Positions 3,303-51,438 of a stretch of 64,000 nucleotides of DNA are shown piece by piece. Below the pieces are notes generated by a model, which was not told where the DNA came from, did no database searches, and was given only the letters and a program-made list of their open reading frames with translations. Position 1 is the first letter of the stretch, and the number at the start of each line of letters is the position of its first letter. The translations under genes were made by a program, and so were the position numbers. The stretch is from Octopus vulgaris (taxonomy: Eukaryota): the NCBI GenBank assembly GCA_951406725.2, contig OX597827.1, forward strand, positions 8,308,001-8,372,000, in the 5' to 3' direction.

Positions 3303-3339
<37 letters not shown>

Positions 3340-3341
<2 letters not shown>

Positions 3342-3481
3342 AATTAAACTTAAATGTTGAAGTGAATCGAACGGCTTTTGTGTGTTTCTTAAATGGCTTA
3401 TAAACACCTTCAACGCTGCAATTGTTTTCGTTTCAGCACACGATCTCAGATCAAATTACTTGCTATGCGAGTACATCTCCG

Positions 3482-3484
<3 letters not shown>
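3340..3484 (+). mobile_element. 3' tail fragment of the Penelope-like hairpin element seen at 47666 and 50161, inside (TA)n
   Basis: Matches the right arm plus tail 47842-47988 (caaattaaa...ttaaatggcttataaacaccttcaacgctgcaa...cacgatctcagatc); flanked by (TA)n on both sides. Confidence 0.75.
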
Positions 3485-6410: not shown

Positions 6411-6834
6411 TCCAGTAAATGGCTGCTTTCAATGGACATTTTTGAGTAGAATCTGATTATAACAATAATATATTTTGATAGAATCAGAAAACTGACAAGG
6501 AAAAATTGCCTTATGACATTTTCATTTGATTCTTTTAGATTTCTGAGTCCCAAATTCTGCCAAGGTTGATGTTGCCTTTCAATTTCTAAGTCAATAAAAA
6601 AAGCGGTAGTCAAGTACTTGGATAAATTTAAAGAATTGTGCCATACTCACAAGCATGTATGACCTTGTATTTCTCTCCATTATACTTGCAAAATGATGAA
6701 ACTGTCTCACATATATTTCATTTAGAGCTGATAGGTAAGTTTATATTCAACAATAGTCAACTGAACACATTGTGAAAGGTGAACCTCTGTCAAGAGTTTT
6801 ATCTCTGTTTAATGACTGAGGCAAAGAAAGTTGT

Positions 6835-15037: not shown

Positions 15038-15067
<30 letters not shown>

Positions 15068-15077
<10 letters not shown>

Positions 15078-15295
15078 TATTAGAGACAAAACCACTATTT
15101 TGCAAAACAAACAAGGAAAGACTTAATCAATACATTTATTAAAATTTTATGTATTGATTAAGTCTTTCCTTGTTTGTTTTGCAAAATAGTGGTTTTGTCT
15201 CTAATAATATTTTATAATATTTTACTATAAAATTGGATTTAATCCTAAATCTGATTTTTTTCCCTGTAAATTTGGATTTATTCCCTAATATTTAT

Positions 15296-15300
<5 letters not shown>
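15068..15300. mobile_element. Asymmetric fold-back element in (TA)n (about 68-bp perfect arms plus about 85-bp tail), copy 1
   Basis: Arms 15068-15135 and 15149-15216 are reverse complements; homologous copy at 51101-51376. Confidence 0.8.
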
Positions 15301-15331
<31 letters not shown>

Positions 15332-15525
15332 GTTTCTAATATACAAGGCAAAGATTTATATTAAAAGATGATGGGCTCTCAAATTTAATGACTGCTCAGC
15401 AGGTAAATACACTGGATTGAGAATCTTACAATTTCAATTTCTGAATTGTAAGTAATTAATATATTGTCTTTTATATGTCATGTGAAACCTAAGACATATT
15501 TCCAACATACTTACGCATATGCATG

Positions 15526-27049: not shown

Positions 27050-27819
27050 ACTATATATATATATATACACAACTATTTATATATAAATATATATATATAT
27101 ATATACAACTATATATATATATAAATATATATATATATCTATAGAAACACACAACTATATATATATATATATAAATATATATATACACAGTGGGCTTCTT
27201 TCATTTCCATCTACCAAATCCATTCACAAAGTTTCGGTCACCCTGAGACTATAGTAGAAGGCATTTGCCCAAAGTGCTATGCCGTGGGACTGAACCTGGA
27301 ACCATGTGGTTGGGAAGCAAGTTTCTTGCCACACAACCACACCTGTGCATATTGCACCAATTTGTACTCATCTTCCCAGGTATTTTCATTCACCCTTATA
27401 TAATGCGGGGGTCAGCCATGTGTCTTTTCAATAGCAAAAAATATTTGTGCTTGTACCTGACATAAAGCCACCTCCCCCTCTTAAAAACCCTCACTCAGAC
27501 ACTGGGGTGCTTTCCACTTTTCTTTTATTGTCTTGCAATTTCCTTGGCAACTTCACTTGTCTAGTGGCATGGAAAACAAAACAAAAACCACAACACCCAG
27601 GACACACTGTAAAGTTGTTAGTGTTAAGAAGAACATCCAGCTATAGCGACTATGCCAACACTGAAACTAGAGCAATGCAACCCTGTGGGAAATGGATGCT
27701 AAATTATGATGATATTTATTGAATTGTTTTCTGACACAACACAGTTTTTTTCTTACACTTCTGAACATAAATGTGCACACAAACACAGACATGAGAACCT
27801 AGGTTTGAAATTTCCCCAG

Positions 27820-27865
27820 GACACCTGATGAAGGCTGGAGACTATATCAACCGAAATGTTGTGTT
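27820..27865 (+). ncRNA. Minimal type I hammerhead motif (canonical C3-G8), slightly decayed
   Basis: GACAC-CTGATGA-A-GGCTG gagactatat CAACC-GAAA-TG-T-T-GTGTT; helix I GACAC/GTGTT; one mismatch in stem II. Confidence 0.6.
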
Positions 27866-27923
27866 AACAACAAACAAGATAAGGACAAAAATATGTCAAA
27901 TGTAAATGGTGCAAATAATGTAG

Positions 27924-28152: not shown

Positions 28153-28625
28153 GCATTATCAAATCTCAAAATGAGATTGAAACAGTAATCGCTCGATAAT
28201 GTAAAGTATAGAAGCCATCTTATCATGGCTAACCACATTGGGGAGGGGGTGTTACTGTAGCTTTATAGCCCCAAGAGATCGTCGTCTCTAGCTGGCTTTA
28301 GACACCATTTCAGTGCCCTTGAAGTATTTGCAAAGGGAGGCCATCCCATCCTCGCAAGCCTGAGTGATACGCTCGGAATAGTTTCAGGATTTTTGTCCCT
28401 TGTCAACGGGCGGTAACCACCAGGGACAAAAATCCCGAAACTAGTCCGAGCGTATCACTCAGGCTTGCGAGGAAGGGATGGCCTCCCTTTGCAAATACTT
28501 CAAGGGCACTGAAATGGTGTCTAAAGCCAGCTAGAGACGACGATCTCTTGGGGCTTTAAAGCTACAGTAACACCCCCTCCCCTATGTGGTTAGCCATGTT
28601 AAGATGGCTTCTATACTTTACATTA
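28153..28625 (-). mobile_element. Asymmetric fold-back element in (TA)n, about 200-bp arms, Penelope-like
   Basis: Arms ~28197-28400 and ~28422-28625 are near-perfect reverse complements; unpaired ~45-bp tail on the left; (TA)n on both flanks. Confidence 0.85.
28370..28412 (-). ncRNA. Minimal type I hammerhead motif with U3-A8 core
   Basis: Minus strand CGCCCG-TTGACAA-GGGA caaaaa TCCT-GAAA-CTAT-T-C-CGAGCG; the opposite arm keeps TCCC-GAAA-CTAG-TC. Confidence 0.65.
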
Positions 28626-29507
28626 TATATATATATATAAACCAAAAAAGAGTGAAAAAATACAGAAGGCTTGTGTTATATGGTTAAAGAATATATTTAA
28701 GTCGTTATGTTAGAAAAATGTTATTAAATTTTGTGTATAGTAACATAGTTTTTGGAGAAATAACCAGTTTCGTATTTTCTTTTCAAATTTCTCAAATTTC
28801 ATTACTTACATCGTGTCATGTCTTCACTATGTTGTGAAATATGGAGTTCCAATATATATATACACACATACACATATATATGCATACATATATATATATT
28901 TATATATATAAAAATATATATATATGTATGTGTGTATGTATATACGTATATATATGTATGTATATCCATATATGTATGTGTGTATGTATGCATATATGTC
29001 TATGTTATATGTAGTGAGAGGGGAAGGGATGGAGGGAGGGTGTCATGGAGATGTATAGGTTTGAAAAATGATAAAATAATTAGTTAATTAGTTAAGAAGT
29101 CTAATTGCAATCATATAAAATATGAATCTCATTCTTCTACAATTATTATAACTAGTAAACCTTGCTCTTCTTCTCATGTTAGGCATTTGTGGAAATTCAT
29201 GGAGAATGTTTTCCATTCCAAACTAACCTAAATAGCAATGATAACTAAGTTTGCCTCATATCCCAGCTAGAAATGAATTCGGAGATTGGATGTTTCATAG
29301 CTTGTTAATATGTTATCCAAATATTATCTTCCTAGAAATTTACCAGAAAGCCAGATCATTATTGGAGAGCTTCTGAATGGCTGATGTAAGAAGGTTAAGT
29401 GAGTTTTATTGGCTTATAATAATTGGATTTCAACCAGTCATTATAAATGTATCTGTACTTGTACAGTAACTAATGGGGTCCTCTTGAATTTTTTTTTAAG
29501 TATATAT

Positions 29508-46291: not shown

Positions 46292-46818
46292 TGTGTATGT
46301 GTATGTATCTCTTATTATAAAAGGCAGATTTTATCTGCCTCCCTTTGGGAGTTATACAAATCTACAATATAGGATTTCTTCAATTACAATTTACCTGGCA
46401 TTTTTAAGAGTACAATGCATTGCGTCATGCCAGCTCCAGTTTTTAAAATTTAAACTCCAGTTAAGCAAAATTTACAGAAAACTCACATTCTGGTGTGTGT
46501 GTCAAATGCTTTTCTTAGTCTGGTTTACACCACACGCAAACGCACACACACAGTGGGCAACGAATAAAACGAAACTAATTGACTTACTGTAGTGAGTGAT
46601 TCTTTCACTCTGCCTCCCACTTCTTCTTTCCACACAGACACGCAAATATATAAATAAAATTGTAAGCTAACGTGCGTGTGTGTGAATGGGTGGGTGTGGG
46701 TGTGCGCGTGTGTGTGTGTGTGAGGGTGCGTGTGTGTGTGTGTGTGTGCGTGTGCGTGAGTGTGTGACAGGAAAGTTTTTTTACGACGAATATAATACCT
46801 ATATCCAAGTAGCAGAAA

Positions 46819-47305
46819 GATAAGACAGTAAGGTGTGATTTGAGGGAGATTTGGCTGCTATTTCTACCATGTCTAGCTGCCATGTAGGGGTCTCCCTCAT
46901 AGGCTCATACATACATATATATATACATAGATAAGACAGTAAGGTGTGATTTGGGGGAAATTTGGCTGCTATTTCTACCAGGTCTAGCTGCCATGTAGGG
47001 GTCTCCCTCATAGGCTCATACATACATATATACATAGATAAGACAGTAAGGTGTGATTTGGGGGAAATTTGGCTGCTATTTCTACCAGGTCTAGCTGCCA
47101 TGAGGGGTCTCCCTCATAGGCTCATACATACATATATACATAGATAAGACAGTAAGGTGTGATTTGGGGGAAATTTGGCTGCTATTTCTACCAGGTCTAG
47201 CTACCATGTAGAGGTCCCCCTCATTGGCTCATATATATATATACATACATAAGACAGTAAGGTGTGATTTGAGGGAGATTTGGCTGCTGTTTCTACCAGG
47301 TCTGT
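46819..47305. repeat. About 106-bp minisatellite, 4 full units plus 1 partial
   Basis: Unit agataagacagtaaggtgtgatttgggggaaatttggctgctatttctaccaggtctagctgccatgtaggggtctccctcataggctcatacatacatatatacat. Confidence 0.95.
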
Positions 47306-47665
47306 TAGGCCTTCTCATGTAAACTCAAGCTTTCTCATGCCTTCAACATATGACCAAAGCAGAGAATGTATTCTTTTATTCTTCTGCTTTTTCCAGCCAT
47401 TGGTCTGTGGCCATGCTGGGGCAATGCCTTGAAGAATTGTAGTTTAATGAATCAACTCCAGTTTTATTTTTGTAAGCATTGTACTTATTCTATCTGTTTC
47501 CTTTGTCAAACCACTAGGTGACAGGGATGTAAACAAACCAACATTCGTTGTCAAGCAGTGGTGGAGGACAATCACAAGCACAGACACGCACACACACACA
47601 CACACACATACATGCATACACATATACACACATACATACATATATATATATGTGTATATATATAT

Positions 47666-47988
47666 TGCAGCGTGGAAGGTGTTTGTAAGCCATTTAAGAA
47701 ACACACAAAAACCGTTACATTCACTTCAACATTTAAATTTAATTTGCCAAAATATTTTCGTCGCTTTGAGACCGCCACCTGTTCACTGACAAAAATATCG
47801 TGCTAACAGGTCGCGGTCTCAAAGCGACGAAAATATTTTCACAAATTAAATTTAAATGTTGAAGTGAATCTAACGGTTTTTGTGTGTTTCTTAAATGGCT
47901 TATAAACACCTTCAACGCTGCAACTGTTTTCGTTCCAGCACACGATCTCAGATCAAGTCACTTGCTATGCAAGTACATCTCTGTAACT
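47666..47988 (+). mobile_element. Asymmetric fold-back element in (TA)n (about 117-bp arms plus about 65-bp tail), Penelope-like
   Basis: tgcagcgtggaaggtg...acctgtt / aacaggtc...caccttcaacgctgca; tail shared with 3340-3484. Confidence 0.8.
47743..47793 (-). ncRNA. Minimal type I hammerhead motif with G3-C8 core (copy 1, one stem II mismatch)
   Basis: Minus strand TTTGTCA-GTGAACA-G-GTGGC ggtctcaaa GCGAC-GAAA-ATAT-T-T-TGGCAAA. Confidence 0.55.
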
Positions 47989-48085
47989 ATATATATATTT
48001 ATATATATATATATATGTATATTGGTAAAAACAGTAAGATAACAAAAGAAAGAAAGAGACCTCAATATTATGTAAATAGAGGAAA

Positions 48086-48481
48086 TCTTTATAGATAAAA
48101 GTGAGGTTGTGTGTCTGTCTCCTACGATTTAGATTCCTAACTACTCCCACATTTTGCGGTGCAGTTTAACCAAAACCGGGTATCTTATAGTCGTGATTCA
48201 TATCGAGACCGTCTGGGTATTAGCGCGCGTCTACGATGAGTCTACGATTTATAAAAAAATTTACCATCAATTTTTCCCATTTTTAATCCATTTTTGACAT
48301 ATATAAGGGAAGTAACTCTCTAAAATTTATTATTAAATCTCAGAACGTAAAAAGCTACAGTAACACCCCCTCCCCCTTTGTGGTTAGCCATATTGAGATG
48401 GCTATTATACTTTACATCTCTAAAAATGCTTATATAATTATTTCCCTTACAAACCCGAGCAACGCCGGGCGATACTGCTAG
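48086..48481 (+). mobile_element. Short non-autonomous Helitron supplying the 3' end of unit 1 (copy at 50581-50974)
   Basis: a|TCtttatagataaaagtg 5' end; subterminal GC hairpin and CTAG 3' end. Confidence 0.8.
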
Positions 48482-48988
48482 TCTTATTATAAAAGGCAGA
48501 TTTTATCTGCCTCCCTTTGGGAGTTATACAAATCTACAATATAGGATTTCTTCAATTACAATTTACCTTGCATTTTTAAGAGTACAATGCATCGCGTCAT
48601 GCCAGGTCCAGTTTTTAAAATTTTAACTCCAATTAAGCAAAATTTACAGAAAACTCACATTCTTGTGTGTGTGTCAAATGCTTTTCTTAGTCTGGTTTAC
48701 AGCACACGCAAACGCACACACACAGTGGGCAACGAATAAAATGAAAGTAATTGACTTACTGTAGTGAGTGATTCTTTCACTCTGCCTCCCACTTCCTCTT
48801 TCAACACATAGACACGCAAATATATAAATAAAATTGTAAGCTAACGTGCGTGTGTGTGAGTGGGTGTGTGTGGGTGTGCGCGTGTGTGTGTGTGTGAGGG
48901 TGCGTGTGTGTGTGTGTGTGCGTGTGCGTGAGTGTGTGACAGGAAAGTTTTTTACGACGAATATAACACCTATATCCAAGTAGCAGAA

Positions 48989-49795
48989 AGATAAGACAGT
49001 AAGGTGTGATTTGAGGGAGATTTGGCTGCTATTTCTACCATGTCTAGCTGCCATGTAGGGGTCTCCCTCATAGGCTCATACATACATATATACATAGATA
49101 AGACAGTAAGGTGTGATTTGGGGGAAATTTGGCTGCTATTTCTACCAGGTCTAGCTGCCATGTAGGGGTCTCCCTCATAGGCTCATACATACATATATAC
49201 ATAGATAAGACAGTAAGGTGTGATTTGGGAGAAATTTGGCTGCTATTTCTACCAGGTCTAGCTACCATGTAGGGGTCTCCCTCATAGGCTCATACATACA
49301 TATATACATAGATAAGACAGTAAGGTGTGATTTGGGGGAAATTTGGCTGCTATTTCTACCAGGTCTAGCTGCCATGTAGGGGTCTCCCTCATAGGCTCAT
49401 ACATACATATATATATACATAGATAAGACAGTAAGGTGTGATTTGGGGGAAATTTGGCTGCTATTTCTACCAGGTCTAGCTGCCATGTAGGGGTCTCCCT
49501 CATAGGCTCATACATACATATATACATAGATAAGACAGTAAGGTGTGATTTGGGGGAAATTTGGCTGCTATTTCTACCAGGTCTAGCTGCCATGTAAGCG
49601 TCTCCCTCATAGGCTCATACATACATATATACATAGATAAGACAGTAAGGTGTGATTTGGGGGAAATTTGGCTGCTATTTCTACCAGGTCTAGCTACCAT
49701 GTAGAGGTCCCCCTCATTGGCTCATATATATATACATACATAAGACAGTAAGGTGTGATTTGAGGGAGATTTGGCTGCTGTTTCTACCAGGTCTG
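48989..49795. repeat. About 106-bp minisatellite, 7 full units plus 1 partial
   Basis: Same unit as at 46819; three extra units account for the 319-bp length difference between the dimer units. Confidence 0.95.
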
Positions 49796-50237
49796 TTAGG
49801 CCTTCTCATGTAAACTCAAGCTTTCTCATGCCTTGAACATAAGACCAAAGCAGAGAATGTATTCTTTTATTCTTCTGCTTTTTCCAGCCATTGGTCTGTG
49901 GCCATGCTGGGGCAATGCCTTGAAGAATTGTATTTTTATGAATCAACTCCAGTTTTATTTTTGTAAGCATTGTACTTATTCTATCTGTTTCCTTTGTCAA
50001 ACCACTAGGTGACAGGGATGTAAACAAACCAACATTCGTTGTCAAGCAGTGGTGGAGGACAATCACAAGCACAGACACGCACACACACACAAATACATGC
50101 ATACACATATACACACATACATACATACATACATATATATATATGTGTGTATATATATATTGCAGCCTGGAAGGTGTTTGTAAGCCATTTAAGAAACACA
50201 CAAAAACCGTTACATTCACTTCAACATTTAAATTTAA

Positions 50238-50288
50238 TTTGCCAAAATATTTTCGTCGCTTTGAGACCACGACCTGTTCACTGACAAA
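50238..50288 (-). ncRNA. Minimal type I hammerhead motif with G3-C8 core (copy 2)
   Basis: Minus strand TTTGTCA-GTGAACA-G-GTCGT ggtctcaaa GCGAC-GAAA-ATAT-T-T-TGGCAAA; helices I and II pair fully allowing G-U. Confidence 0.6.
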
Positions 50289-51058
50289 AATATCGTGCTA
50301 ACAGGTCGCGGTCTCAAAGCGACGAAAATATTTTGACAAATTAAATTTAAATGTTGAAGTGAATCTAACGGTTTTTGTGTGTTTCTTAAATGGCTTATAA
50401 ACACCTTCAACGCTGCAACTGTTTTCGTTCCAGCACACGATCTCAGATCAAGTCACTTGCTATGCAAGTACATCTCTGTAACTATATATATATTTATATA
50501 TATATATATGTGTACATTGGTAAAAACAGTAAGATAACAAAAGAAAGAAAGAGACCTCAATATTATGTAAATAGAGGAAATCTTTATATATAAAAGTGAG
50601 GTTGTGTGTCTGACTCCTACGATTTAGATTCCTAACTACTCCCACATTTTGCGGTGCAGTTTAACCAAAACCGGGTATCTTATAGTCGTGATTCATATCG
50701 AGACCGTCTGGGTATTAGCGCGCGTCTACGATGAGTCTACGATTTAAAAAGAAATTTACCATCAATTTTTCCCATTTTTAATCCATTTTTGACATATATA
50801 AGGGAAGTAACTCTCTAAAATTTATTATTAAATCTCAGAACGTAAAAAGCTACAGTAACACCCCTCCCCTTTGTGGTTAGCCATATTGAGATGGCTATTA
50901 TACTTTACATCTCTAAAAATGCTTATATAATTATTTCCCTTACAAACCCGAGCAACGCCAGGCGATACTGCTAGTATATATATATATGCATACACACACA
51001 CACATATATATATATATATGTATGTATGTACATATGTAATATAAATAATATATATTTG

Positions 51059-51100
<42 letters not shown>

Positions 51101-51112
<12 letters not shown>

Positions 51113-51369
51113 TTAGAGACAAAACCACTATTATGCAAATCAAACAAAGAAAGACTTAATCCAATACATAAAAAATTTTATATAAATTAAATTTTATTTT
51201 ATTTTATTTAATTTATATAAATTAATTTTTACGTATTGGATTAAGTCTTTCTTTGTTTGATTTGCATAATAGTGGTTTTGTCTCTAATTAATATTATATA
51301 ATATTTTACTATAAAATTGGATTCAATCATAAATCTGATTTTTCCCTGTAAATTTGGATTTATTCCCTA

Positions 51370-51376
<7 letters not shown>
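51101..51376. mobile_element. Asymmetric fold-back element in (TA)n, copy 2 of the 15068 family
   Basis: Arms ~51101-51173 and ~51226-51300; same tail ataaaattggatt...ttattccctaatatttt. Confidence 0.8.
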
Positions 51377-51411
<35 letters not shown>

Positions 51412-51438
51412 TGTATATATGGACATATGTAATATAAA

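Follow-up and report, generated by a model that had tools for sequence, protein, structure and literature searches.

The window, a 64,000-nucleotide stretch of Octopus vulgaris DNA, contains on its minus strand a minimal type I hammerhead motif in which positions 3 and 8 of the core form a G3-C8 pair. The motif is the hammerhead of the pLTR of a Penelope-like retroelement (family A), intact copies of which encode a reverse transcriptase (RT) and a GIY-YIG domain. It is almost certainly a descendant of the Penelope hammerhead that carries a family-wide compensatory swap of the 3-8 pair. Judging from the sequence, the family A hammerhead in intact elements probably still self-cleaves.

The flagged motif is composed of helices I and II and a palindromic helix III in type I order (Table 1). 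Every element had been placed from the letters in an earlier note, and all of them lie at those positions on the minus strand. Helix III is AAUAUU and self-complementary, and the cut is predicted between 50245 and 50244. The motif retains U4, G5, A6 and A9, G12, A13 and A14, the pairs A15.1-U16.1 and G10.1-C11.1, and H17 of the minimal type I hammerhead. A single extra nucleotide separates positions 9 and 10.1, and is a G in family A and nearer relatives; the core strand is clean, with no base inserted in it. The identities C3 and G8 of the CUGANGA consensus are replaced by G3 and C8 family-wide, hence the motif is a variant rather than a canonical member. A covariance model built from only 12 relatives, all outside family A, ranks the motif (50235-50289, minus strand) first of the 16 window matches listed, with 28.5 bits and an E value of 8.8e-5 (rough calibration). 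The flagged motif is therefore not a product of chance. The second copy (47740-47794) ranks second with 19.8 bits. No hammerhead family is among the best 150 of 352 matches in an Rfam scan of the window. A separate hammerhead-like motif at 27817-27870 of the plus strand has a canonical CUGAUGA core and a weak stem II (15.5 bits with model R2), and is probably part of the pLTR of another Penelope family.

Table 1 Positions of the hammerhead motif, pLTR arms and carrier units in the window.
Feature	Position	Strand	Remarks
Type I minimal hammerhead motif, G3-C8 core	50238..50288	-	Covariance model, alignment, folding
Helix I, 5' strand	50288-50282	-	7 bp helix
Core strand G3 U4 G5 A6 A7 C8 A9 (GUGAACA)	50275..50281	-	G3 = 50281, C8 = 50276
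Extra G between core positions 9 and 10.1	50274	-	
Stem II	50273-50269 paired with 50259-50255	-	
GAAA	50254-50251	-	
U17	50245	-	
Helix I, 3' strand	50244-50238	-	
Inverted pLTR arm, Penelope-like family A	50160..50299	-	Whole hammerhead inside; starts ~5 nt after likely transcription start
Forward pLTR arm	50300..50482	+	5'-truncated inside core; without helix I 5' strand and without G3-U4-G5
Second motif copy	47743..47793	-	One stem II pair broken; local tandem duplication
Upstream duplicate of inverted pLTR pair	47665..47987	.	98.8% identical
Helitron-like non-autonomous carrier	48482..50974	+	Captured and spread pLTR pair; TC start, hairpin and CTAG end
Upstream tandem copy of Helitron-like carrier	46308..48481	+	TC start preceded by A
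Independent family A pLTR fragment, no core	3339..3484	+	Between (TA)n tracts; starts just 3' of hammerhead

The parent element was reached through a GIY-YIG fragment that lies upstream of the motif, in the same direction, at two loci; a search with this fragment gave 150 scored matches. The pLTR is present in 40 of the 42 loci fetched for the GIY-YIG region, approximately 1 kb downstream of the stop codon and frequently at the 5' end as well, in inverted orientation, and 52 of the 54 anchored sites in these loci, a few of which overlap, carry G3-C8. The open frame of locus L125 is 1,025 aa long and encodes RT motifs, a C-x3-C-x2-C linker and a GIY-YIG domain that scores 25.4 bits against the Pfam cut-off of 22.6. 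In locus L139, a direct 5' pLTR leads into the ORF, and the predicted cut lies about 55 nt upstream of the start of this ORF. The link to a Penelope RT/GIY-YIG frame anticipated in the earlier note is thus established. The family A translation contains DKSG, SLYPS and YVDD, which we take to be RT motifs. Homologues of the protein are named reverse transcriptase domain, its RT matches in the PDB are weak, and Pfam RVT_1 does not match it. The single ORF with RT and C-terminal GIY-YIG, the cysteine linker, the pLTRs in direct and inverted partial tandems, the 3' tail and the (TA)n flanks resemble those of Neptune/Nematis-type EN+ Penelope-like elements (Craig et al. 2021, PMC8557442). In the available part of that paper, the Neptune and Nematis clades are defined by a CX2-5CxxC linker before GIY-YIG, in agreement with the C-x3-C-x2-C of family A protein P0001.

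The G3-C8 pair is the consensus state of family A. The window copy belongs to a subfamily with a 9-nt loop II, which was searched by a pattern with positions 7 and 8 left free. The search returned 1,458 exact matches, compared with 0 for the reversed control; C8 is present in 95 of the first 100 listed, and G3 and C8 are present in about 95% of the copies. None of the 61 non-G3 copies, all of which were listed, is C3-G8. The 47 copies with G8 are single mutants: among the 30 fetched, 28 have G3 and none has C3. In a younger subfamily, loop II is 8 nt long, and 2,063 exact GUGAACA matches stand against 33 non-G3 copies, which include one U3-A8 and no C3-G8. The two subfamilies share stems and core and differ in the length and sequence of loop II. 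Pooled over both, C3-G8 is found in 0 of 94 non-G3 copies, and the earlier note was right to propose GUGAACA as the family consensus and G3-C8 as a family-level variant. Neither reversion nor covariation is seen within family A; the copies that lack G3 or have G8 are either single mutants or junctions. Helix III and the cleavage site read ATAT-T-T in 99 of 108 family A sites. Letters containing GTGAACAGGTCGC also occur at loose ends in contigs from each of four public runs, which bear the coded labels of four organisms, so the G3-C8 state is not private to one assembly.

Sister family B has frames of 1,311-1,312 aa, many of them intact, and 3,731 pattern matches. Its protein is 55% identical to that of family A and 98.7% identical to a record named Octopus vulgaris by its source. 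The family B hammerhead occupies the same place and has C3-G8, with compensatory changes in helix I and stem II. Its consensus core is CUGAUGC, with C at position 9 (L169:2129-2180 and 6717-6768; L167), a second non-canonical core that is missed by standard descriptors. C9 occurs together with U3-A8 in the relative L201, and in the Penelope-like relative L199 (4965-5019) U15.1-A16.1 replaces A15.1-U16.1, with C3-G8 and the stems intact. Other relatives have G5U, G12A or a decayed core. Together with C9 of family B, these changes show that the cores of the clade tolerate departures.

Relatives are also encoded at 76 metagenome loci, which were scanned with one descriptor that demanded 3-8 pairing; in a second scan and in the reading by eye of 21 loci, no such pairing was demanded. 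The hammerheads of the metagenome relatives have C3-G8 or U3-A8, and are located mostly just 3' of the ORF. No motif was seen in the available flank of L208, L215, L217, L218, L223, L230, L237 and L251, and no relative was found among the viral contigs searched. From these sources, 17 motifs were aligned, excluding L200 and L204 (C3-G8, other loop III length), L250 (C3-G8), the duplicates L221, L272 and L274, and L233, which has a decayed core with U opposite G at 3-8 and no canonical pair. Positions 3 and 8 form a Watson-Crick pair in all 17 motifs (C-G in 10, U-A in 5 and G-C in 2), part of the relatives having come from the descriptor that demanded this pairing. Paired cells make up 93.6% of the alignment, versus 58.9% after shuffling and 28-46% with slid partners, and two-sided changes occur in 10 of 11 pairs. 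The helices are thus kept and covary across relatives, as the earlier note had supposed.

In a protein tree of 22 rows with a midpoint root, from which L266, L270 and L271 were left out for short matches, families A and B form a sister pair (100/100) within a set of C-G and U-A relatives. This position argues that G3-C8 arose on the family A branch, where the compared sequences indicate it to be the derived state. The change from C-G to G-C takes two transversions, and arose once here, as one event and not many.

The 5' ends of dispersed copies bear on the RNA from which they were made. We sampled 57 pLTR sites, in order from the start of contig C1, out of 8,226 matches. Of these, 30 start no more than a few bases from an AG located 58-60 nt before the cut site, and 3 run clearly further upstream. 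Copies that start exactly at the AG have an extra non-element G in front at 14 of 21 junctions (one duplicate pair) and at 5 of 5 further ones; starts at the AG, mostly with the extra G, are found at L287, L288, L308, L313, L319, L323 and L327-L329. By analogy with other retrotransposons, we infer that the extra G may be a copied cap, and that new copies would come from capped, uncut RNA. This resembles the Anolis Penelope element PAc, for which the available text of PMC11167929 gives unprocessed RNA as the main substrate. There is no pile-up of starts at the cut site: 1 of 57 copies begins within 2 nt of it and 5 of 57 within -3..+7, approximately as in random truncation. In locus L318, both arms of an inverted pLTR pair start 2-3 nt from the predicted cut, and this single case could be derived from cleaved RNA. 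A 3' splice site was also considered at the AG that precedes the motif. It was dropped because this AG is retained in the dispersed copies and has an added G before it, in better agreement with a capped start; an intron there is possible.

We propose that RNA polymerase II starts a capped RNA approximately 58-60 nt upstream of the cut site. The hammerhead would then be part of the 5' leader, and about 55 nt would separate the cut site from the start codon downstream. The cut would occur after U17, slowly, in a dimer, and with help from the protein of the element. Were most new copies made from uncut RNA, cutting would have to be slow or late. In its native context, the family motif has predicted folding probabilities of 0.69-1.0 for helix I and stem II. 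A wobble between G3 and U17 is possible in the predicted minimum fold. The duplex of helix III is predicted to be very weak, at -0.2 kcal/mol versus -4.8 for a relative. Slow cutting is therefore expected. A G3-C8 variant is described in the accessible part of PMC3884650 as less active with C17 than with G17, the data not being shown there. The presence of U17 in 106 of 108 family A sites is compatible with this report, but many relatives have U17 too.

In laboratory mutants, the exchange of the two bases restores cleavage in part. The earlier note had stated that compensatory swaps partly rescue cleavage in vitro, in agreement with the C3G/G8C mutant of the PAc hammerhead, whose cleavage needs the protein of the element (PMC11167929, as far as its text is available). 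In the motif of PMC9901934, similarly, the G:C swap (C20G/G25C) is the only rescuing double mutant in the part of the paper at hand, and the rescue is partial. The base swap of family A is identical to these two; they are, however, laboratory mutants, whereas that of family A is the natural state in elements with intact reading frames.

It is also possible, although we favor it less, that the motif is a former hammerhead that no longer cuts, with its fold kept as a binding or folding element for the protein of the element itself and G3-C8 fixed under weak or structural constraint only. Such a loss would agree with the lack of an excess of copies starting at the cut site, with the weak helix III and the G3-U17 wobble, with the fixation of the non-canonical C9 in sister family B, and with the dead hammerhead mutants in the available text of PMC11167929, which do not impair insertion in vitro. 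However, the same text reports no read ends at the cut site for a Penelope hammerhead that cuts in vitro. Loss of cutting also fits poorly with two transversions that struck exactly both 3-8 partners and restored their pairing, with the retention of the remaining core (U4, G5, A6, A9, G12, A13, A14 and A15.1-U16.1), and with the 3-8 pairs of all 17 aligned homologues. If, as we propose, only the active fold contains the 3-8 pair, the retention of this pair by compensatory change indicates selection for that fold.

Beyond family A, we speculate, with some doubt, that selection in the whole clade has favored hammerheads that are deliberately slow, with G3-C8 fixed in family A, C9 fixed in family B, and U3-A8 or U15.1-A16.1 carried by relatives. 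If this is true, each variant keeps the active fold and damps the rate, and the capped leader survives translation and reverse transcription to be cut later, on binding of the protein.

The copies in the window have a separate history. The flagged copy is located in one arm of an inverted pLTR pair, the arms of which are approximately 90% alike. The ORF begins in the forward arm (first codons, with ATG at 50390), which also includes the 3' tail and is followed by (TA)n. The opposite arms have the perfect stem that the earlier note saw in them, but are not hammerheads, as they are cut off inside the core and start at AACAG. The second motif copy exists as described, but is not independent, since both copies sit in a local tandem duplication with 97.8% identity (46308-48481 and 48482-50974); the pair is a local duplicate, and no sign of a dimer design. 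The 322-base unit with the inverted arms has 30 best genome matches that are 99-100% identical and have flanks in common. The larger unit around it starts with TC preceded by A, and ends with a hairpin and CTAG followed by T. A 5' TC, a 3' hairpin with CTAG and insertion between A and T are the marks of Helitrons, and among L001-L030 A precedes TC in 17 of 17 starts listed and T follows CTAG in all ends listed. We therefore conclude that one captured insertion has been spread by a Helitron-like carrier. Outside the carrier, the unit is flanked by unrelated sequence, varies in its 5' inversions and ends in (TA)n. Window positions 46308-50974 hold a head-to-tail pair of Helitron-like units. Besides the captured inverted pLTR pair, this carrier unit has a SINE-like piece and a 107-bp minisatellite, and near-identical copies of it are present on many contigs, some also in tandem. 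The window contains other long inverted repeats, at 28196-28626 (208-bp arms at 97%) and a palindrome at 15040-15343 that is related to 51072-51419; the repeats at 28196-28626 and 15040-15343 are possibly further inverted pLTR pairs.

Both window copies are predicted not to fold and to be passengers of the carrier, and the flagged copy is predicted to be dead. The U in its stem II (50269, C-to-U) is private, with C in 28 of the 29 other best genome copies (stem GTCGC). In the folding prediction for the window copy alone, stem II has a probability of 0.08, because the private U allows G12 and A13 to be drawn into an alternative pairing. When this copy is folded within the whole element RNA, a hairpin of -204 kcal/mol leaves a predicted probability of 0 for both helices. 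It is thus very improbable that the window copy is itself an active ribozyme that dimerizes with the copy 2.5 kb away, even though the two have direct orientation on the minus strand; the other copy, moreover, is broken in its stem II. We also dismiss the idea that the motif resembles a hammerhead by chance, as a product of the long inverted repeat in a MITE-like or Helitron-like element. The near-palindromic nature of TTTGACAAA itself and the position of the window motif in an arm of an inverted repeat of 130 bp, within a Helitron-like unit, would favor this idea, but are outweighed by the inverted arrangement being a variable by-product of 5' inversion, by most copies being solo or following an RT/GIY-YIG frame, by the 17-row alignment, and by the first rank that the motif obtains with a model from homologues of unrelated sequence.

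The family A motif has a close resemblance to the minimal type I hammerheads of metazoan Penelope-like elements (Cervera and de la Pena 2014, PMC4209133), which in the text available to us share the pLTR location, the extra nucleotide between 9 and 10.1, G10.1-C11.1, the palindromic helix III, the thousands of solo copies and the close pairs on opposite strands. It differs from them in having G3-C8 instead of C3-G8, a helix I of 7 bp, and G as the extra nucleotide, which is H in their consensus. No octopus entry was found in the available part of PMC4209133. The same part gives U3-A8 as a natural covariation in Penelope hammerheads. A compensatory change at the same tertiary pair, U3-A8 is also natural in Perreault et al. 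2011 (PMC3088659), insofar as that paper is available, and occurs in five relatives here; the core-variation section of PMC3088659 does not list G3-C8 among natural variants. We found no report of a natural G3-C8 hammerhead in the literature searched, mostly without subscription papers and including the available parts of PMC8495972, PMC6765202, PMC7151607, PMC12192606, PMC13725137, PMC8490949, PMC13282606 and bioRxiv 10.64898/2026.07.22.740005; absence from print is not established by this search.

With G3-C8 throughout, family A lies outside the CUGANGA and U3-A8 descriptors, and CUGANGA searches miss it, as the earlier note foresaw. Lunse et al. 2017 reportedly described dimeric Penelope hammerhead variants, and may list core variants. 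The CUGANGA and U3-A8 descriptors miss whole families, here both of two related ones with more than 7,000 matches together. Hammerheads are nearly universal in Penelope-like elements, yet they cut poorly, and insertion in vitro seems to proceed without them. Against this background, the fixation of two compensatory changes at a pair that matters for the active fold, in a family with more than 3,400 copies and with intact frames, is comparative evidence for selection on that fold. The swap was foreseeable from mutants, and family A provides a direct natural test of whether the ribozymes of these elements are kept for catalysis.
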